Source of the DNA: Parcubacteria group bacterium
GTDB taxonomy: Bacteria > Patescibacteriota > Minisyncoccia > Moranbacterales > UBA9337
Assembly: GCA_041662245.1 (NCBI GenBank)
Contig: JBAZSW010000006.1
Span: forward strand, 10,442 to 74,441
Length of the DNA: 64,000 nucleotides
Reading direction: 5' to 3'
The notes below the pieces were generated by a model. The model made no database searches, was not told the DNA's origin, and saw nothing but the letters and a program-made list of their open reading frames with translations. Positions 3,202 through 46,228 of this stretch are shown in pieces (the first letter of the stretch is position 1; each line of letters starts with the position of its first letter). The position numbers and the translations under genes are program-made.

Positions 3202-3798
3202 TTATTTATCTTTTAAAGTTAAACATTCAAAAGCTTCATGCTCATTAAACTTTTTATTCCATTCCTCAGGACTTCCATAATCAGCAAAATCCTTATACCA
3301 CCCATGAGCTACATTCATCTTGCTGGCAGCCTTAATTGGACACCAATATCTTTCCGTACGGGCTCCGATTTCCACTGCATAAGCGAAAAGCCCATTTACA
3401 TAACTACAATATAAACAATGAACTTTTTGAATAATATTTAAATAATCCAAAAATCTTCTATCATAAACGATAAAATCTTTACGTTTAACCTTGGGAATTT
3501 TATATAATGGAAATGCTGCTGCTTGATACACCGTTATGAAAATATCCAAAATAACCACCGGAAAAATCATAGAATAAATAAAAGGCAAGGAAAATGCATG
3601 TCTAATATTTTTAGGAACAGCATATTTCCAAGCTGGAATACGAAAAGTTCTATTTCTTTCTTTTATTTTTTTTAGAAATATTATTTTTTTCTGAGAAATA
3701 TAGAATCCATATTTTTTAGCTAACCTAGATTGTTCCTTGCGAAGAGCAACATTAAGAGCTTCAATTTTTTCGAGAATTTTTCTAATCTTTGATTCCAT
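3202..3798 (-). CDS. hypothetical protein
   Basis: 198-aa ORF, no recognisable motif. Confidence 0.35.
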   Translation of the reverse strand: MESKIRKILEKIEALNVALRKEQSRLAKKYGFYISQKKIIFLKKIKERNRTFRIPAWKYAVPKNIRHAFSLPFIYSMIFPVVILDIFITVYQAAAFPLYKIPKVKRKDFIVYDRRFLDYLNIIQKVHCLYCSYVNGLFAYAVEIGARTERYWCPIKAASKMNVAHGWYKDFADYGSPEEWNKKFNEHEAFECLTLKDK

Positions 3799-3855
3799 AG
3801 TAAAACTTTATATAATTTAAAAACAAATTTATTGTACCTTAAATAAAAAATTTAA

Positions 3856-5043
3856 TTAGTCGCTATTTTTTTCAATATGCGCAACACGGTAAGTTCCGTC
3901 CGCTTTTAAATAATTAACATTGATGGTAATTTTATTTTCTTTTACTGTTATTTCTGCAAAAGCTCCCTGATACTTAGGATTTTTGCCTATTCCAGGAAGA
4001 TCAATATAGTCCACGCCATTAATTTCTTTATAATATAAGTCTTCAATGTGTCCTGCAAAAACAGCCCTAACACCATATTGAGAAAAAATATTTTGTAAAT
4101 CCCGAGCATTAGATAAAAAATCTACATTCAAATCTATGTCGTCATCTAGCAATGGAGGATGATGCATAAAAACGATAACTTTTTTATTTGTATCTTTAAT
4201 CTCATCCTTTAACCATTCCAATTCTTTTTCTGAAACTTTTCCTTGAGTATAACTATTGCCGGCACGCACGTCACTGTCATCTTTTCTGAAATTACTATCT
4301 AAAATTATTATTTTATAATTTCCCACCTCAAAAGATTTATATAAATAATCAATTCCCAAAACCTTCACCCATTGCGCTTTAGTAATCGAACGCAAATCAT
4401 GATTGCCTATTGCCCAATATTTTTCGATTACAGTTCTATCTAATATTTTTTTAACCAAAGATAATTCTTCACTCCCTTGCGTTGAATTAATTCTAGTTCC
4501 TTCAATCATATCTCCGTCTAATAAAATAAAGTTGGGAATAAAAACATTGTTCATTTTTTCGACAAAATAATTCAACTTTTTAGCATAAGATTCTTTTAAA
4601 TATCTACCATTTCCTCCATAGGTAGTACTCATTGCATGTAAATCAGTAGCAAAGCCAATTTTTAATTCATCCGAATTATTTATTTGCTTTTCTGGCTCAG
4701 GAAGAGGCGGAAATTTATCCTGAGAAACATTTTTGTCTGTTTCTGCATTATCAGAAACTTCCTTATTTACATCCAATTGTTCGGCATCGACTTCTAATAT
4801 TTCTTCCTCTGTAGCATCTTCAATTTCATTAGCAGTTGTTTGATTTTGGGATTCTTCAATTATTTCGACTTCCAGTTCCTCCTCTGGTTCAATTTCTTCT
4901 GTTTTTGAGGAGGACGTGTTTTCTCTTATTACTTTATCATATTTAAAAATACCCCAAAAAACTATTCCATAAATAAGAAAAATACCAAAAAAAATAACAA
5001 AATAGATAGCTATTTTTAAATACAACTTTTTTGTTTTTAACAT
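3856..5043 (-). CDS. calcineurin-like metallophosphoesterase, membrane-anchored with acidic linker
   Basis: N-terminal TM helix, E/D-rich low-complexity linker, phosphoesterase motifs 'GDMIEG', 'GNHD', 'FMHHPP'. Confidence 0.7.
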   Translation of the reverse strand: MLKTKKLYLKIAIYFVIFFGIFLIYGIVFWGIFKYDKVIRENTSSSKTEEIEPEEELEVEIIEESQNQTTANEIEDATEEEILEVDAEQLDVNKEVSDNAETDKNVSQDKFPPLPEPEKQINNSDELKIGFATDLHAMSTTYGGNGRYLKESYAKKLNYFVEKMNNVFIPNFILLDGDMIEGTRINSTQGSEELSLVKKILDRTVIEKYWAIGNHDLRSITKAQWVKVLGIDYLYKSFEVGNYKIIILDSNFRKDDSDVRAGNSYTQGKVSEKELEWLKDEIKDTNKKVIVFMHHPPLLDDDIDLNVDFLSNARDLQNIFSQYGVRAVFAGHIEDLYYKEINGVDYIDLPGIGKNPKYQGAFAEITVKENKITINVNYLKADGTYRVAHIEKNSD

Positions 5044-6096: not shown

Positions 6097-8658
6097 TTAA
6101 TAAAATTTAAATTTAAATAACTTCAATATCTCAAACCACAATAAACTTGCCACTGAAACTACACTAATTAATAACAATTCTCCGATACTAACTGGAGCCA
6201 TATGAAACAAATTAGAAAAGAAAGGCACATATAAAACAATAAAAAGACAAATAATTGCTCCACCTATGACAAAAAGCAATGCCTTATTTCTAGTCAAAAT
6301 AGTTCTGTACATTGTTTTGTGCCAAGAAAGATTAACTACTATTAAAATAAGATTTGATAAAACAAGTGAAACAAAGGCAAATGAACGAACAGCTTCTTCG
6401 CTTCTATTTGTTTTAATCGCATAAAAAAATAATAAAAAAGTTGTTAATAAAATTCCAAGTCCTTGTAATAAGCTTACCCCAACGGTTCTTTTGTTAAAAA
6501 TGGAATCGTTGACATCTCTTGGTGGTCGATGCATCGTGCTTGATGATTCTTTTTCGGATTCAAAAACTGTCGAGCAAGCAGGATCAATTATTAATTCCAA
6601 AAAAGCAATATGCGCTGGCAAAAGTACCACCGGAAAATTAAAAAATAATGGCAAAAGCGCTACTCCAGCAATTGGAATATGTACAGCCAAAATATAACCC
6701 GAAGCTTTTTTTAAATTAGCATAGATACGTCGTCCCAAACGAACTGCATCCACAATAGAAGAAAAATCATCATTTAAAAGAACTAACGCCGAAGCTTCGC
6801 GGGCTACATCTGTACCCCGTTGCCCCATCGCAATCCCGATATCAGCAGCTTTAAGTGCTGGAGCGTCATTAACTCCATCACCTGTCATTGCCACTATTTC
6901 ATTATTCGATTTAAGTGCATCAATAATTTGTAGTTTTTGTTCCGGCGCCACTCGCGCAAAAATGTTTGTTTTTGTTATTCTTTCTTTGAGCTCATACGGA
7001 TGCATCTTGCTCATTTCATCACCCAAGATAAATAATTCTGGATTTTTAATACCAATTTTTTTAGCAATAAATTGAGCAGTTCCGGGATAATCTCCGGTTA
7101 TCATAATCACCCTAATGCCCGCTTGGTAGGCTTGCGCGATTGCTCCTGAAGCTGTATTTCTCGGCAAGTCAACAAAACCAAAAAATCCAGCAAATTTAAA
7201 ATCAAAGTCGTGCTGATTATTTGGCAATTCACTCTTGGAAAAATTAGCCTTTGCTGCTCCCAATACTCTTAAACCTCTACCAGACATATCATTTACAACT
7301 TTCAACAATTTCTTTTTTTCTTCTTCGGTAATATGACATAAATCCAAAATTGCCTCTGGTGTTCCTTTAGAAGCTATCAAATAATTATTATTTTTTGTTT
7401 TCCAAACATGCGACAGGGCAATTAATTCTTTTGACAAAGGATATTCTTTGATTAGAAATGAATCATCTAATGTTTCTTTTTTATTAATTAAACATCTAGC
7501 GCAAGACTTTTTAAGTTCTTTTTCAATAGGATCAAATGGATCTTGCTGACTGGAAAGTAATCCTATCTCAAGCAAATTGATAAATTTTAATGGCAAATCA
7601 TTATTTTTTGTATTTTTTATTTCGAAAAATTCTTCCTTAGAATAAAGAATATCCAATTTCATTTTATTTACAGTAAGTGTCCCAGTTTTATCAGTACAAA
7701 GAACTGTTGCAGCACCCAACGTTTCAATAGCAGCGGAACGTCTAGTTAAAACCATTTTTTTTGAGATACGCCAAGCTCCTAATGTAAAAAAGATTATTAA
7801 AACCACGGGAAATTCTTCGGGAAGCATCGACATACTTAAAGCTAATCCCGCCAAAAAACCTTCCAAAAAATTGCCTCTTGCAAAATAATAAACAAGAACG
7901 AAAGCGATACAAACAATGATACCAAACGCTCCCATCCAACGTGCCACCTTGGAAATTTCTTTACTCAAACGAGTGTCTTCGCTAGTGATTGATTCTAAGC
8001 TTTTGCCGATTTTCCCAATTTTTGTATTAATTCCCGTAAATAAAACCTTTGCAACGCCTCGGCCACTGACCACCAAAGAACCTGCATACACGAGAGAAAC
8101 ATTCGTAGCGCCTATTTTAATTGATTTATTGTCTTCATTTCTTTCGGATTTTCGAACAGGAACAGATTCTCCAGTCAAAAGAGATTCATCCGCATATAAA
8201 TTTTCACAATTTAAAATTAATGCATCAGCAGCAATGCGGTCACCTTCTCTTATTATCATGATATCCCCACGTACCACTTCGCGACCGGAAATTCTTTTTT
8301 GGTCACCATCTCTTATAACTAAAGCCCTAGGACTGGAAAGATTACGCAAGGCATCCAATGTTTTTTCGGTTTTATGCTCTTGATAAAAAGTTATTCCAAT
8401 AACCACAATAATGAAAGAAATAAGTATCAAAGCGTCTTGCAATTCTCCTATCAAAAAGTAAATTGATCCCGCCGTAACTAGAATGAGTAGCATAGGTTCC
8501 TTAATGACACCTAAAAATATTGAAAAAGCACTCTGTTTTTTTTGTGAAGGAAGTTCATTAAATCCTTCTCGCGCAATAATTTTTTTAGCTTGTTTTTCCG
8601 TGACTCCGCTGTATTCGATTTTGTCCTTCACTGGTTTCATAAAAAAATGTTTTATCAA
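6097..8658 (-). CDS. cation-transporting P-type ATPase (Ca2+/Mg2+ type)
   Basis: 'DKTGTLT' phosphorylation motif, 'TGDGVNDAPALK' hinge motif, about 10 TM helices. Confidence 0.85.
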   Translation of the reverse strand: MIKHFFMKPVKDKIEYSGVTEKQAKKIIAREGFNELPSQKKQSAFSIFLGVIKEPMLLILVTAGSIYFLIGELQDALILISFIIVVIGITFYQEHKTEKTLDALRNLSSPRALVIRDGDQKRISGREVVRGDIMIIREGDRIAADALILNCENLYADESLLTGESVPVRKSERNEDNKSIKIGATNVSLVYAGSLVVSGRGVAKVLFTGINTKIGKIGKSLESITSEDTRLSKEISKVARWMGAFGIIVCIAFVLVYYFARGNFLEGFLAGLALSMSMLPEEFPVVLIIFFTLGAWRISKKMVLTRRSAAIETLGAATVLCTDKTGTLTVNKMKLDILYSKEEFFEIKNTKNNDLPLKFINLLEIGLLSSQQDPFDPIEKELKKSCARCLINKKETLDDSFLIKEYPLSKELIALSHVWKTKNNNYLIASKGTPEAILDLCHITEEEKKKLLKVVNDMSGRGLRVLGAAKANFSKSELPNNQHDFDFKFAGFFGFVDLPRNTASGAIAQAYQAGIRVIMITGDYPGTAQFIAKKIGIKNPELFILGDEMSKMHPYELKERITKTNIFARVAPEQKLQIIDALKSNNEIVAMTGDGVNDAPALKAADIGIAMGQRGTDVAREASALVLLNDDFSSIVDAVRLGRRIYANLKKASGYILAVHIPIAGVALLPLFFNFPVVLLPAHIAFLELIIDPACSTVFESEKESSSTMHRPPRDVNDSIFNKRTVGVSLLQGLGILLTTFLLFFYAIKTNRSEEAVRSFAFVSLVLSNLILIVVNLSWHKTMYRTILTRNKALLFVIGGAIICLFIVLYVPFFSNLFHMAPVSIGELLLISVVSVASLLWFEILKLFKFKFY

Positions 8659-14750: not shown

Positions 14751-14772
14751 AGACTAGTTTAATACGAAAAAT

Positions 14773-14808
14773 AAGGCTTTACGGAGCCTTATTTTGTCAT
14801 TTGCACGG
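14773..14808. repeat. hairpin + 'TTTTGTCATTTGCACGG' module, copy 1
   Basis: Hairpin aaggctttacggagcctt immediately followed by the 17-nt motif. The same motif follows a hairpin at 15753-15792. Confidence 0.5.
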
Positions 14809-15571: not shown

Positions 15572-15752
15572 TGTCTGTCTCCTTGTGTGTAATTAAATGG
15601 TTTAATTTCGTTTAGTTTTGTTCTTTTCGACTGTAAATTCTCAAAGGGCTAATGTGAATTGTTTGATACTTATCAATTAATTCAACTTTTTATGATGGCA
15701 CAAAACTAGTACTTTGTCAAATATTTTCCTTGTATGTGTTAATTAAAAATAG

Positions 15753-15792
15753 AAAAACGCCCTTTTTTAGGCGTTTTTTGTCATTTGCACGG
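15753..15792. repeat. hairpin + 'TTTTGTCATTTGCACGG' module, copy 2
   Basis: Hairpin aaaaacgcc-ctttttta-ggcgttttt followed by the identical 17-nt motif. Confidence 0.5.
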
Positions 15793-18784: not shown

Positions 18785-18820
18785 ATGCAGTCCACTTTAT
18801 TATTATAATATCATTTTGTG

Positions 18821-18893
18821 AGCCACCTGTCGGGCTCGGACCGACGACCTACTGTTTACAAAACAGTTGCTCTACCAACTGAGCTAAGGTGGC
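18821..18893 (-). tRNA. tRNA-Thr (anticodon TGT)
   Basis: Acceptor GCCACCT/AGGTGGC, D-arm GCTC-AGTTGGTA-GAGC, anticodon loop TTTGTAA, T-arm GTCGG-TCCGAGC-CCGAC. Confidence 0.85.
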
Positions 18894-18992
18894 ATAATTA
18901 TTTCTTATATTAAATATTTTAAATAGCATTTTTATCTTCTTCATCTAAGGCTCGCCCTATCATTCGATAGGGCGTCATGTCGGATGACATGG

Positions 18993-19049
18993 CGGACCGA
19001 CGACCTACTGTTTACAAAACAGTTGCTCTACCAACTGAGCTAAGGTGGC
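18993..19049 (-). pseudogene. truncated duplicate of tRNA-Thr(TGT), 5' 57 nt only
   Basis: 57 nt identical to positions 1-57 of the intact tRNA-Thr(TGT) at 18821-18893. The acceptor 3' strand is absent. Followed by two perfect hairpins (18976-18991, 18954-18973). Confidence 0.6.
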
Positions 19050-19136
19050 TTATCTTTAATTTATCTTCAATTCTTTAACCAAATAAAAAACAAACACTTA
19101 TCAATTCTATTCTAAAATTAAATAATTGTAAACAGT

Positions 19137-42093: not shown

Positions 42094-45000
42094 CTATCTT
42101 TTTATAGTAATGACAATTTTTTCTCCATCAATTACAAATTCTTTTTCTAAATCTACTTTCGGGGATTTATTTTCCCTAGAAAGAACTTCGTCGGCCAATG
42201 TTTCTTTGGCAATAATATTTCTTAAATTTTCATCACCAAAAACCTCATTTGCCCCATCATACCATACCTTTATGCGATTGTCGACTTCATAGCCTGCTTG
42301 CTTACGCATTTCTTGTATAAAACGAATAATTTCTCGCGCTTGTCCTTCGAGTTTTAATTCGGGAGTAATTTCTGTATCTAGCTCAATAGCTAAGACATCA
42401 GCTGTTGGCTTATTTGTTTTGCCAGACAAAACATCCTTCATATTCGTTGTTTTAATAATAGCTTTGTGTTCTACTTTATCACCCTCATTTTTCCCAACAA
42501 CATAAGCTATATTTTTAACATTAACTTCTTCTTTTATTATTTCCAAGAGCTCTTCACTTAATCCACAATTCTTGATTCTTAATTCACCCAAAGGTTGTCT
42601 GACTTTTATCCCGCTCTTGGCTCGAAGCTGTAATCCAATGTTTACAATCTCCCGCACCGCTTGCATATCCAAATTTATTTTTTCATCAATCAAACCCTCA
42701 TCTGCCACCGGAAAATCAGCCAAATGCACCGACAATAAGGCCTCCTCCCCTCCCTGAGGGGAGGATTGAGAAGGGGTGGAAATTAAATTTCTAAATATTT
42801 CTTCACTCACAAACGGTGTAAACGGTGCCATCACCTTGGAAAGCTCTACTAAAACATAATACAAAGTCTGATAGGCTTCATTTTTATCACCATCGTTTTC
42901 ACTTTTCCAAAATCTCTTTCGACTGCGACGAATATACCAGTTGGACAGATTATCGACAAATTTTGGCAAAAGCCTCGCGGCTTTATGCAACTCATAATTT
43001 TCCATATGCAGATTAAATTCTCTAATCAACATATGCAATTCTGAAATAAGCCATTTGTCCAATAGGCCATTTAATTTTTGCGGATTAAAATTTTTATCCG
43101 CTTCAAACTTATCAATCTCAGCGTAAAGCACAAAAAAAGAATAGCTGTTCCAAAGCATTCGCATCATTCCACGAGTGATTTCCCCCACTTCATTCTCGAT
43201 AAAATTCATATTTTGAGCCGCCACCACAGGAGAACTCATCAAATAATAACGCACACTATCTGCTCCGTATTTCTCAAACATTTCCATCGGATCAGGATAA
43301 TTTTTTAGTTTCTTAGCCATTTTCTTTCCGTCCTCGGCTAATACGATTCCATTTACTATCACATTTTTAAAAGCGTTGCTATCTTTTATCCCGCTGGCAA
43401 TTACATGCTGATAATAAAACCAAGCTCTGGTCTGATCTATTCCTTCAGCGATAAAATCAGCTGGAAAACTTTCTTCAAATCTATCTTTATTTTCAAATGG
43501 ATAATGTTTTTGAGCATAAGGCATCGAACCACTGTCAAACCAAGTGTCTAGCACATCTGGCACTCTTTTCATTTCTCCTTTACACTTTTCACACTTGAAA
43601 ATAATTTTATCAACCACATGTTTGTGTAGATCATTAATTTTTTCTCCACTAATTTTTTCAAGTTCTGCGATAGAACCGAAAACTTTTTTTTCTCCACACT
43701 CTTCACATACCCAAATCGGCATTACACTAGCCCAAAAACGTTGACGACTGATAGACCAATCTCTCGCCCCCTCCAACCAATTACCAAAACGTCCTTCTTT
43801 TATATTAGCCGGAGACCAATTGATATTTTTGGCTAGCTTTAACATCTTATCTTTTATTTTCGTTACTGCTACAAACCATGAACTCGTCGCATAATTTATC
43901 AATGGAGTATCACAACGCCAACAATGCGGATAGCTGTGCTCAAATTTTTCTTTATGAAACAAATTTCCATTTTTCGCTAGATATTTAATAATTTCTACGT
44001 CAGTAGCTTGTGGGTTTTCAATCGGCTTTACATTCAACCCTGCTAACTCTCCCATCTCATCCTTAAAACTTCCATCCATTGCCACATGTTGTATAAAGGG
44101 AAGCTTTTTTTCTTTCCCTAATTTCATATCATCTTCACCAAAAGCCGGTGCAATGTGAACCACTCCCGTTCCTTCATCTGTTGTCACAAAATCACCAGCA
44201 TAAATTTTCCAACCATTTTCCCTATTTTCCAAGTTTTCATCTTTACTATAAAAATCAAAAAGCGGTTTGTATTTTTTACCAACTAAATCTTTACCCTTAA
44301 ATTCTTCAATAATTTTATATTCACTATCCTTAAAAACATCTGTCAATCTATCCTTAGCTAAAATAAATCTCACTAGCTTACCCACACCCTCATCTTTCTT
44401 TTCTATTTTTACATAATTAATATTTTCACCAACTGCAAGTGCCACGTTTCCTGGTAAAGTCCAAGGTGTTGTCGTCCAAGCTAAAATAGAGGTCTTGACC
44501 TCCCCTCCTCCCTGAGGAGGGGATTGAGGAGTGGTGTCTTCGCCATTGTCAGAAATAAATTCAAACTCTGCGATCACACTCAAATCCTTCACATCCTTAT
44601 ATCCTTCGGAAACTTCTTGCTGCGAAAGCGTGGTTTCACAACGCGGACAAATATGCATAGAGCGATAATCTTGGTAAATTAAATCCTTATCCCATAATTC
44701 TTTAAAAACCCACCAAACACTCTCCATGTAATCTTTATCCATAGTGCGATAAGCATTTTTCATATCTGCCCAGCGTCCCAACCTTGGAATAAGTCGCTCC
44801 CATTCATCTACATATGCCAAAACTTTGCTACGACAAAGTTCATTAAATTTTTCTACACCCATCACTTCAATATCTTTTTTCTTCTTGCTTCCCAATTCTT
44901 TTTCTACAATGTTTTCAATTGGCAAACCATGACAATCCCAACCCCATTTACGCTGCACATAGAACCCACGCATCGTCCAATATCTCGGCACTACATCTTT

Positions 45001-45192
45001 CAAAAGACTCCCCACGATATGTCCATAATGAGGAGTGCCTGTCGCGAAAGGAGGTCCATCATAAAAAGTATATTCTTTGGCACCTTTGCGATTTTCCATT
45101 GATTTTTCAAATATTTTATTTTCATTCCAAAAATCGATGATATTTTTTTCCATCTCCGGAAACTTTTGATTTGATTCAACTTTCTTAAACAT
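42094..45192 (-). CDS. ileS: isoleucine--tRNA ligase
   Basis: 1032 aa. HIGH-type motif 'PHYGH', KMSKS-like 'KMAKKL', editing domain, zinc knuckles 'CPRCETTL' and 'CWRCDTPL'. Confidence 0.9.
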   Translation of the reverse strand: MFKKVESNQKFPEMEKNIIDFWNENKIFEKSMENRKGAKEYTFYDGPPFATGTPHYGHIVGSLLKDVVPRYWTMRGFYVQRKWGWDCHGLPIENIVEKELGSKKKKDIEVMGVEKFNELCRSKVLAYVDEWERLIPRLGRWADMKNAYRTMDKDYMESVWWVFKELWDKDLIYQDYRSMHICPRCETTLSQQEVSEGYKDVKDLSVIAEFEFISDNGEDTTPQSPPQGGGEVKTSILAWTTTPWTLPGNVALAVGENINYVKIEKKDEGVGKLVRFILAKDRLTDVFKDSEYKIIEEFKGKDLVGKKYKPLFDFYSKDENLENRENGWKIYAGDFVTTDEGTGVVHIAPAFGEDDMKLGKEKKLPFIQHVAMDGSFKDEMGELAGLNVKPIENPQATDVEIIKYLAKNGNLFHKEKFEHSYPHCWRCDTPLINYATSSWFVAVTKIKDKMLKLAKNINWSPANIKEGRFGNWLEGARDWSISRQRFWASVMPIWVCEECGEKKVFGSIAELEKISGEKINDLHKHVVDKIIFKCEKCKGEMKRVPDVLDTWFDSGSMPYAQKHYPFENKDRFEESFPADFIAEGIDQTRAWFYYQHVIASGIKDSNAFKNVIVNGIVLAEDGKKMAKKLKNYPDPMEMFEKYGADSVRYYLMSSPVVAAQNMNFIENEVGEITRGMMRMLWNSYSFFVLYAEIDKFEADKNFNPQKLNGLLDKWLISELHMLIREFNLHMENYELHKAARLLPKFVDNLSNWYIRRSRKRFWKSENDGDKNEAYQTLYYVLVELSKVMAPFTPFVSEEIFRNLISTPSQSSPQGGEEALLSVHLADFPVADEGLIDEKINLDMQAVREIVNIGLQLRAKSGIKVRQPLGELRIKNCGLSEELLEIIKEEVNVKNIAYVVGKNEGDKVEHKAIIKTTNMKDVLSGKTNKPTADVLAIELDTEITPELKLEGQAREIIRFIQEMRKQAGYEVDNRIKVWYDGANEVFGDENLRNIIAKETLADEVLSRENKSPKVDLEKEFVIDGEKIVITIKR

Positions 45193-45248: not shown

Positions 45249-45286
45249 TTGCATTTTACTGCTACGCTTTGAAGTGTGGAAGTAAA
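45249..45286. repeat. 38-bp perfect direct repeat, copy 1 (ttgcattttactgctacgctttgaagtgtggaagtaaa)
   Basis: Identical to 45850-45887. Lies 57 bp upstream of the ileS start. Confidence 0.8.
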
Positions 45287-45293
45287 TGACTAT

Positions 45294-45839
45294 TTAAAAA
45301 TATTTAGTCATTCTCTTCAATTTCTTATATAGATCTGTTTTTTCTTTCATCTTATTCATTTGCTCCACAACCTTTCTAATTTCCTCCCTTTGCTTTTTGT
45401 TGGAGTTCTTTATAATATTCTCCAAAACAATTTCCGGCCAATAATACATGGGATATTTTTTCTTTATATTGCTAAAATTTCTTTTAAAATAATCGTCTTC
45501 TTTTACAATATCTTTGCCCTTAGTAATCTCCACTGCTTTGCGATAGCCTTCTCCTGAAATATTTAGCCACTCTCGTACTCTAGCAATTGTTCCATCTCCT
45601 ACCTTTAATTCATCTTTTATTTCCTCATAAGAAAACCCATCCAATATCATTTCTGCAATTTTTAATCTTTTGGAAATCATTTTTACTTCATTGACAGTAA
45701 GTAAGTCACTTAAAAAACCTGCTATTTCTTCTGGCTTTTTTATTTTAGACACAGCCAAACATAGCTTATAAAACATCTTTCCCAAGTCTTTCTTATTCAC
45801 ACTCTCTTTTTTACTTGTATTCTCTTTTAATTTATCCAT
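45294..45839 (-). CDS. TrpR-like YerC/YecD family DNA-binding protein with C-terminal extension
   Basis: 'LSDLLTVNEVKMISKRLKIAEMILDGFSYEEIKDELKVGDGTIARV' resembles the YerC/YecD HTH. 181 aa. Confidence 0.45.
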   Translation of the reverse strand: MDKLKENTSKKESVNKKDLGKMFYKLCLAVSKIKKPEEIAGFLSDLLTVNEVKMISKRLKIAEMILDGFSYEEIKDELKVGDGTIARVREWLNISGEGYRKAVEITKGKDIVKEDDYFKRNFSNIKKKYPMYYWPEIVLENIIKNSNKKQREEIRKVVEQMNKMKEKTDLYKKLKRMTKYF

Positions 45840-45849
45840 AAAAATAAAA

Positions 45850-45887
45850 TTGCATTTTACTGCTACGCTTTGAAGTGTGGAAGTAAA
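45850..45887. repeat. 38-bp perfect direct repeat, copy 2
   Basis: Identical to 45249-45286. Lies 11 bp upstream of the YerC-like ORF start. Confidence 0.8.
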
Positions 45888-45899
45888 ATAGTTTTTTTA

Positions 45900-46185
45900 A
45901 TTTTATAATTTTCGTAGCATAAAAAAACAAAAAATCCCTACGCAAAAATTGCATAAGGACGAATAAATCGTGGTACCACCTTAGTTTAGCTTGTAGTTTT
46001 TAGATTTTTAGTTTGTAGTAAAAAATACTACTATCTAAAAAGTTAATCGCTACCAGCTCTTAATTTCAGCTATTACGGGCTTACCCGATAAGGTCTACTC
46101 ATCAAAAAGACTTTCTTCTTATATTCTCTCGCTTATTAGGCGAATTCAAATGGTGATAGCCACCCTACTGGAGAATTTTAATTGA
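45900..46185 (-). promoter_or_regulatory. candidate T-box riboswitch leader (with upstream sigma70-like promoter at 46192-46220)
   Basis: Minus-strand RNA carries 'AAGGUGGUACCACG' (+ 45968-45983), one mismatch from T-box consensus AGGGUGGNACCGCG. Followed by a hairpin (45934-45958) and U-run (45920-45933). Upstream promoter TTGCCA-17-TAATAT. Confidence 0.45.
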
Positions 46186-46228
46186 CAAGTTTATATTACA
46201 TTAAAAATATTTTTTTGGCAATAATTTT

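Follow-up and report, generated by a model that had tools for sequence, protein, structure and literature searches.

The locus considered here lies on the minus strand of a 64,000-nucleotide stretch of DNA, which as a whole we call the window, from a tiny-genome CPR bacterium of the Parcubacteria/Moraniibacteriota group. Read along that strand, it comprises a promoter-like site, a probable T-box leader with its terminator, one copy of a 38-bp repeat (copy B), a gene for a TrpR-like protein, a second copy of the repeat (copy A) and ileS. The ileS gene (42094–45192), downstream of copy A, encodes an isoleucyl-tRNA synthetase of 1032 amino acids, while the gene between the repeats (45294–45839) encodes a protein of 181 amino acids that profile and fold matches assign to the YerC/YecD type of the TrpR family. 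The T-box leader (45952–46157), which precedes copy B, matches Rfam RF00230 with 38.9 bits (E 6.6e-6) against a gathering score of 93, and both the conserved GGTGGTACCACG box and the terminator hairpin are present. This intrinsic-terminator-like hairpin, followed by a T-run, was returned by the terminator scan at 45934–45960. The promoter-like site TTGCCA-17-TAATAT upstream of the T-box (46193–46221) is a consensus match only.

The first hairpin of the T-box is short, GGTGGCTATCACC, and contains AUC-A, which we infer to be the Ile specifier. In relatives in which the TrpR-like gene is linked to ileS, a T-box always stands ahead of the TrpR-like gene, with an HAD gene between the two in one case (L010), and the T-boxes at the matching place score 37–61 bits. 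More broadly, the ileS T-boxes of the window and of L001, L006, L010, L017–L019 and L100–L103 all fall below the Rfam gathering threshold (37–61 bits); all have the very short first hairpin with AUC-A, and a terminator follows. Short-stem-I ileS T-boxes occur in Actinobacteria, and those of these CPR bacteria are reminiscent of them, but here come with a terminator.

The ileS reading frame has peculiarities of its own. Two perfect, GC-rich (70%) palindromes with 10-bp arms stand out in this AT-rich genome, TCCTCCCCTC-CCT-GAGGGGAGGA and TCCCCTCCTC-CCT-GAGGAGGGGA, at 42743–42765 and 44501–44523. Their core, CCTCCCTGAGG, is found at those two places only in the window (none of 100 shuffles reaches two) and once in the 85% relative L001, again within ileS. 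The encoded peptides, ..PQSPPQGGGE.. and ..SQSSPQGGEE.., fall in the two segments that are gapped or poorly conserved against the IleRS of L002, and the pair look like short in-frame palindromic insertions. The same comparison, made by eye between the window IleRS (42094–45192) and that of L002 (5606–8569), is mosaic: the first ~735 residues are about 50% identical and the final ~300 nearly 90%, whereas the adjoining TrpR-like proteins are 81% identical; this suggests that part of ileS was replaced or recombined in one of the two lineages. Extra domains also occur among IleRS relatives, namely His_Phos_1 in L010 (4591–8133), P0104, P0109, P0155 and P0180 and NUDIX in P0108, P0109, P0161 and P0186.

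Two further repeats in the window are recorded for completeness. An 86-nt direct repeat of 87% identity (18837–18922 and 18993–19078) overlaps a tRNA-Thr(tgt) at 18820–18893; ARAGORN reports no tRNA at the second copy, where a tRNA may have been duplicated in part or a gene overlooked. Two terminator-like hairpins (14759–14808 and 15743–15792), 984 bp apart, are each followed by the identical 17-mer TTTTGTCATTTGCACGG, and the pair may be another repeated intergenic signal.

The 38-bp repeat as an imperfect palindrome

The repeat, TTGCATTTTACTGCTACGCTTTGAAGTGTGGAAGTAAA on the plus strand, occupies 45249–45286 (copy A) and 45850–45887 (copy B). The two copies are identical, 601 bp apart from start to start with 563 bp between them, and the 64-kb window has no further match when up to three mismatches are allowed; 100 shuffles gave none. 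A perfect 38-bp direct repeat flanking a YerC-like open reading frame is what the original prediction had described, and both coordinates and the 601-bp spacing proved exact, while the distances to the gene starts each come out one nucleotide shorter than it gave: copy A ends 56 nt (not 57) ahead of the ileS ATG (45192), and copy B ends 10 nt (not 11) ahead of the ATG of the TrpR-like gene (45839). Copy A starts 7 nt past the TrpR-like stop codon. Around the pair, similarity continues in weaker form to a total of 58 nt at 84%.

Both adjoining genes lie on the minus strand, on which each copy reads TTTACTTCCACACTTCAAAGCGTAGCAGTAAAATGCAA. The first 32 nt form an imperfect palindrome in which 10 of 13 arm pairs match, running from 45887 to 45856 in copy B (axis between 45872 and 45871) and from 45286 to 45255 in copy A (axis between 45271 and 45270). 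Each copy contains four recognition-type motifs: TTACT and ACACT, separated by TCC and followed by TC, lead up to the axis, and AGCGT and AGTAA, preceded by AA and separated by AGC, lead away from it.

Directly 3' of the palindrome both copies carry a -10-like TAAAAT, at 45854–45859 in copy B and 45253–45258 in copy A, in each case a consensus match only. The promoter scan pairs the hexamer of copy B with TCCACA at a spacing of 16 nt, again by consensus alone, and the scan as a whole returned 9 matches against 7.5 expected. In copy A the hexamer is followed by GCAAAAAGGTAATAA, and the corresponding position in relatives and at a single-copy site reads GCAAGT(A/T)GGGTAAT; (T/A)AA(A/G)AT-GC is kept 3' of the palindrome in relatives. 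A sigma-70 promoter was rejected as the conserved feature, the -35 region co-varying with the palindrome and being poor in relatives; of the promoter parts, the window's clade keeps just the -10-like TAAAAT.

A long form of the TrpR/HisR family

That the bracketed gene is YerC/TrpR-like, as had been predicted, is borne out by its matches to PF01371 (Trp_repressor; E 9e-18, 64.5 bits against a cut-off of 27) and TIGR02531 (59.1 bits against 42.2). Profile searches against known structures return 3FRW, 3G1C and 3KOR at E 1e-15 to 1e-17. The AF2 model (pLDDT 80.6 overall, above 90 at residues 20–100) has a confident N-terminal TrpR-like domain and three more helices, and Foldseek matches it to the YerC-type structures 3KOR, 3FRW and 3G1C and to 1TRO with TM(target) of 0.7–0.8, the E. 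coli TrpR–operator complexes 1TRO and 1TRR being among the matches.

Residues ~16–106 make up the TrpR-like helix-turn-helix domain and residues ~116–177 a helical C-terminal extension particular to the family, which carries a conserved KKYPMYYWPE. At 181 amino acids the protein does not fit the size of single-domain TrpR and HisR proteins (about 90–110 amino acids), and the additional C-terminal ~70 residues are present in 49 of 49 aligned members. By these sequence comparisons the CPR proteins are a long-form subfamily of the TrpR/HisR family, with about 100 clusters at 50% identity (E up to 1e-30). One cluster representative, P0001, is identical to the window protein, for which an exact-sequence look-up gave no record. 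Searches of the PADLOC and PHROGs libraries gave no match, and neither these nor the Pfam/TIGR profiles placed a recombinase, transposase, integrase or other such catalytic domain in the protein. By eye, four relatives showed no clear pattern relating the recognition-helix residue (R/Q/H) to the inner motif (ACACT/GTACT/ATACT).

Background for such a protein comes from B. subtilis YerC, identified as HisR, a histidine-responsive repressor of the TrpR family that binds 20-bp palindromes with the operator consensus cacTTTAn6TAAAgtg and that regulates its own gene in about half of the genomes (PMC9413887). Simple orthology with HisR, carrying the HisR motif, was rejected, as both motif and gene context differ here.

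Bracketing palindromes across CPR bacteria

The order TrpR-like gene, ileS, small open reading frame and recO is kept in relatives whose TrpR-like proteins are 85, 81, 74 and 60% identical to that of the window, and in all four the gene is bracketed by two copies of the element, 594–619 bp apart. The palindrome cores differ between species in a compensatory manner (CTTCCACAC..GTGTGGAAG, CTACCGTAC..GTACGGTAG and CTTCCATAC..GTATGGAAG). More distant members of the family have other neighbouring genes, and the bracketing pair is still present.

A scan of one genome per species added 80 loci from many CPR lineages, many of these genomes carrying 2–4 paralogues of the TrpR-like gene. Upon aligning the 250 nt upstream of each gene to the 280 nt downstream, a significant flanking direct repeat was found in about 70 of 83 non-redundant loci, with scores of 36–104 as against 20–38 for shuffles and 14–34 for distant control regions. 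Nearly all of these repeats are palindromes, with arms of 7–26 bp, and most of the low-scoring loci also have both palindromes, more diverged from each other. Overall, two palindromes bracket the gene in roughly 90% of about 80 independent CPR loci of the family; the clear exceptions are three loci whose stop codon is overlapped by the following gene. Measured between axes, the median spacing in the family, 601 bp, is that of the window. The bracketing pair is a hallmark of the CPR-specific long form.

Aligned on the symmetry axis, 130 palindrome copies yield a half-arm consensus AAATACTnCnATACTnn|axis, that is, ATACT twice, 8 bp apart, and so four motifs per element. The family motif is ATACT-n3-ATACT-n4-AGTAT-n3-AGTAT, a layout into which the window element fits. 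The ATACT cores are shared, and the outer-arm sequence is particular to each paralogue.

The upstream axis lies a median of 42 nt ahead of the repressor start codon and the downstream axis a median of 67 nt ahead of the next co-directional gene, so that the two sites stand at similar distances from the genes that follow them. The downstream site is missing where the next gene is translationally coupled. It nevertheless stays beside the stop codon even where the gene that follows is convergent or lies beyond 200 nt, as in L011, which has a separate, real terminator 3' of its palindrome; the downstream copy is therefore not simply the operator of the next gene. Its neighbours include ileS, cysS, glyA, ddl, gyrA and others with no common function, and no his genes were seen beside the family loci, as a HisR regulon would have them. 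We accordingly rejected a shared downstream function as a pointer to the effector, and neither a regulon logic nor an effector can be named from the neighbours. The pairing of a given paralogue with a given downstream gene is itself kept across genomes (ileS at 9 loci, GT28 at 4, a zincin at 4, cysS at 2, and others).

Sites at other loci

A 24-nt core of the window type occurs in six stretches in the whole metagenome collection. Two of its matches flank the orthologous gene in a 91% relative (L094), the upstream one being the exact 38-mer. A GDSL-lipase gene (L098/L099) likewise has the exact 38-mer, here in single copy, 45 nt ahead of it, and a DUF167 gene (L095/L096) has a variant with one mismatch 43 nt ahead; the latter site is on the L006 contig, where the palindromes flanking the TrpR-like gene itself are of another subtype. 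The exact asymmetric core is found beside an L002-type palindrome in L097, and third sites lie upstream of neighbouring genes in L023, L027 and L040.

The three asymmetric positions of the window palindrome are kept across these loci and genomes (half-site CTKCYACRC), which argues for selection on the sequence and against recent copying. Of the two explanations offered beforehand for the perfect identity of the pair, a recent event and strong conservation, it is the second that the evidence fits, the exact 38-mer recurring at other loci and in other genomes. Nor is the 38-mer a common dispersed repeat, the outcome that was to tell against its connection with these genes: with two copies in 64 kb and six stretches in the metagenome collection it does not behave as a dispersed repeat, MITE or REP element, and no window-type element occurs in viral contigs. 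On the negative outcome of the window, metagenome, PADLOC, PHROGs and viral-contig searches, a common dispersed repeat, a phage element and a defence element were rejected.

The L097 site deserves separate mention. Here (7177–7269), in a genome resembling that of L002, an L002-type palindrome and a window-type asymmetric element stand back to back, about 45 nt apart, with a thrS region on one side and the 3' end of a dus gene on the other. Two operator subtypes in one genome may mean two paralogous regulators.

Symmetry kept in DNA, copy by copy

Does selection act on the palindrome as DNA or as RNA? Among 1962 arm pairs from 131 copies, the mismatches on the sense strand divide evenly into 30 of the G:T type and 30 of the A:C type. 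In the window the sense strand folds weakly (-4.6 kcal/mol, z -1.2) and the antisense strand better (-11.8 kcal/mol, z -3.4), the latter only because its mismatches become G:U pairs. An RNA hairpin with a function would be expected to prefer G:U on the strand that is transcribed; the lack of any bias of G:T over A:C, together with the weak sense fold, implies a constraint on DNA and not on RNA, one that acts on double-stranded or otherwise strand-symmetric DNA. We accordingly rejected an RNA hairpin or riboswitch-like element, for which there is also no Rfam match. Long-range pairing between copy B and the stretch that follows the T-box terminator was likewise set aside, since L094, the 91% relative, does not have the complementary ATGCTACG. 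The palindromes are not terminators, since they lack a U-run and are followed by AAAATGC; the terminator scan reports only the T-box terminator and the first hairpin of the T-box (46164–46152), and not the repeats.

The symmetry is, moreover, a property of each copy. The arms of a copy mismatch each other at 103 positions, as against 187 when they are paired with the arms of the other copy (p 1.6e-6), and self-complementarity beats cross-complementarity at 27 loci versus 2. Differences between the two copies are compensated in 40 cases and single in 49, and in five loci the 4-nt centre is flipped between them. Such copy-by-copy symmetry is not predicted by a single protein recognizing both sites.

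Leaders of ileS without the gene

Relatives with IleRS proteins 66–70% identical to that of the window share the backbone argS-GT4-...-ileS-recO-CLIPPER and have no TrpR-like gene. In two of them (L102, L103) the T-box and its terminator stand directly ahead of ileS, the arrangement without the intervening gene that had been named as the comparison to seek. In two others (L100, L101) the slot between T-box and ileS holds a gene for a 290-amino acid protein with no Pfam match (2097–2974), and no family-type palindrome is present in the ileS leaders of L100–L103. Across these genomes the slot between terminator and ileS therefore holds the palindrome-bracketed gene in the window clade, an HAD hydrolase (3237–3899) together with that gene and its palindromes in L010, the 290-residue protein, or nothing.

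With a T-box directly before ileS in relatives that lack the gene, the gene and both palindromes sit as an insert in one sublineage; the layout is kept down to 60% protein identity, so that the event is old. Duplication of a leader segment does not account for the repeat either: no palindrome is present in the empty leaders, and the pair flanks family members unrelated to ileS. Of the first of two readings in the original prediction, a gene cassette recently inserted into the ileS leader with duplication of a leader segment, the insert thus survives, and the recent date and the duplicated leader do not.

Interpretation

In light of the foregoing, the second of those readings, in which the TrpR-like protein acts on both its own gene and ileS by way of a duplicated operator, is the better of the two, and the overall interpretation offered beforehand is partly supported. 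Four-motif palindromes with the geometry of TrpR operators accompany the family almost everywhere; where TrpR dimers bind trp operators in tandem, the ACT/AGT units likewise follow one another at 8 bp. Family membership and the known behavior of TrpR and HisR are consistent with this reading. We consider it probable that each 38-mer serves the encoded repressor as a composite operator, the pair providing for autoregulation and the control of ileS. The four ACT/AGT-type motifs of a copy, two per arm and 8 bp apart, would offer room for two repressor dimers or one tetramer. The operator just upstream of the repressor start codon would provide autoregulation. At the second, past the repressor stop codon and upstream of ileS, as at the first, bound repressor would lower transcription that starts at or passes the sites, which may overlap promoters, presumably in response to some effector. 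In that case two controls would act on the expression of ileS, that of the T-box, responding to uncharged tRNA-Ile, and that of the repressor, and the two sites might cooperate by looping of the ~600 bp of DNA between them through the extra C-terminal domain. The anchoring at the stop codon, the unrelated downstream genes and the copy-by-copy symmetry go beyond a plain operator; they would also accommodate looping, some part played by cruciform or hairpin DNA, or descent from an insertable cassette.

This last idea deserves to be spelled out, unlikely though we think it. The palindrome–gene–palindrome unit would be, or would once have been, mobile, and the palindromes would be recombination sites or cruciform/hairpin DNA, marking the boundaries of a cassette as well as, or instead of, serving as operators. 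A circle of the gene and one site, integrating in the manner of Campbell into a single-copy site, automatically gives site–gene–site–host gene. The presence of the unit ahead of many unrelated housekeeping genes, the genomes with 2–4 paralogues, the variable contents of the T-box–ileS slot, where other relatives hold other genes or nothing, the anchoring of the downstream copy to the stop codon, and the single-copy sites as possible landing pads are all in keeping with this, as are copies that evolve in concert, each with its own symmetry, with perfect arms of up to 26 bp and with a centre flipped between them at five loci. On the other hand, nothing in the enclosed protein points to a transposon or integron cassette, no recombinase or transposase domain being present in it, and its neighbours are housekeeping genes; PADLOC, PHROGs and viral contigs give no match, synteny between paralogue and downstream gene is kept across genomes, and near-identical copies at different places were not seen. 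As the ileS synteny holds to 60% identity, any movement would be ancient and rare. In its fullest form, to which we attach a similarly low probability, the proposal is of a self-contained CPR cassette whose circle integrates at a single-copy palindrome, by recombination there or by the cruciform/hairpin chemistry of the site, recreating the bracketing pair. A housekeeping gene such as ileS, cysS, glyA or gyrA would thereby come under a new repressor that loops through its C-terminal domain, and the symmetry within each copy would be the footprint of hairpin or cruciform intermediates.

The remaining explanations fare less well. Stem-loops in the 5'-untranslated or intercistronic RNA, acting in processing, stability or translational control, would suit copies that lie 10–60 nt ahead of start codons in a probable polycistronic transcript downstream of a T-box and that remain self-complementary through compensatory changes. 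We regard this as very unlikely given the even split of G:U and A:C mismatches (30 against 30), a sense hairpin that is weak where the antisense is better, and ATACT motifs whose 8-bp period is conserved as sequence, beyond what pairing requires; added to this, U-tracts are generally lacking, so that the elements are not terminators (L011 has a separate one), no Rfam family matches, and the long-range pairing predicted for the window is absent in the 91% relative. No more attractive is a duplicated promoter or 5'-untranslated module with no dedicated repressor, its palindrome incidental or bound by another factor. TAAAAT does follow both copies, the flanks GCAAG..GGTAAT are kept at downstream copies and at single-copy L098, and ATACT may be thought to resemble a -10 hexamer, but what is conserved is the palindrome with its four-motif layout and not the weak -35/-10 matches, and the sites keep company with the TrpR-family gene, being missing where the gene is missing. 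That the pair is a recent, functionless scar, for instance a target duplication left by insertion of the gene into the ileS leader, is hardly credible: perfect identity, abrupt ends and a gene set between a T-box and the gene it normally controls directly might all suggest it, yet bracketing occurs in about 90% of family loci from distant lineages, the ileS arrangement is kept to 60% identity, the exact 38-mer is kept both at the upstream site of another genome and at a locus with one copy, and the empty leaders do not have the sequence. The comparative data already contradict it.

CPR/Patescibacteria have very few regulators, and almost nothing is known of how these bacteria control transcription. 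Comparison alone here defines a long CPR form of the TrpR/HisR family, a probable 32–36-bp four-motif operator and a nearly invariant bracketing architecture, and it supplies candidate binding sites, the exact 38-mer among them, that are directly testable. A further prediction is that a T-box and a protein repressor both control an aminoacyl-tRNA synthetase gene, and one may ask how a module of regulator plus operators reaches many unrelated housekeeping genes. Should the sites prove to be ordinary operators, the outcome is the annotation of a regulon, useful but unsurprising; bracketing that stems from looping or from the insertion of a cassette would amount to a new principle of regulation or of genome dynamics.

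Comparison with known systems

The operator reading has its closest precedents in HisR and TrpR, with which the CPR proteins share family and fold. Palindromic sites beside the regulator's own gene are likewise common to both, autoregulation being frequent for HisR (PMC9413887), and trp operators, in their tandem ACTAGT units (1TRR), offer a parallel to the ACT/AGT motifs with their 8-bp period. Unlike the ~100-residue HisR and TrpR, however, the CPR protein has about 175–185 residues with a conserved ~70-residue extension, and its site, with four motifs over at least 32 bp, differs from the HisR consensus cacTTTAn6TAAAgtg. In further contrast to HisR and TrpR, the CPR sites bracket the gene rather than standing upstream only, several paralogues occur per genome, and the neighbours are not his or trp genes.

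Repressors that act by looping, such as lambda CI at OL-OR, LacI at O1-O2-O3, DeoR and GalR, offer a second likeness. There, as here, two similar operators hundreds of base pairs apart enclose one or more genes, and the CPR protein has in addition a helical domain of the kind used for oligomerization. In those systems the distal operator is not known to stand systematically at the repressor stop codon, as it would in the looping proposed for the CPR pair.

Among mobile systems, the ends of IS200/IS605 elements, REP-RAYT, integron attC sites and Xer-dependent dif modules all recall the ~0.6-kb gene set between similar, lineage-specific palindromes in varied host contexts. Unlike these, the protein enclosed at the CPR locus is no HUH, tyrosine or serine recombinase, the repeat is not dispersed and synteny is vertically conserved; unlike attC, it is the inner core that is conserved and the outer arms that vary, the opposite of the attC pattern.

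Finally, the window T-box, with its GGTGGTACC box, its terminator and a presumed AUC specifier upstream, recalls T-box-controlled ileS leaders, of which the relatives L102 and L103 show the classical T-box–ileS layout. It differs in its short first stem and in scoring below the Rfam gathering threshold, and the window clade as a whole differs in having, between terminator and ileS, a repressor gene and two putative operators.
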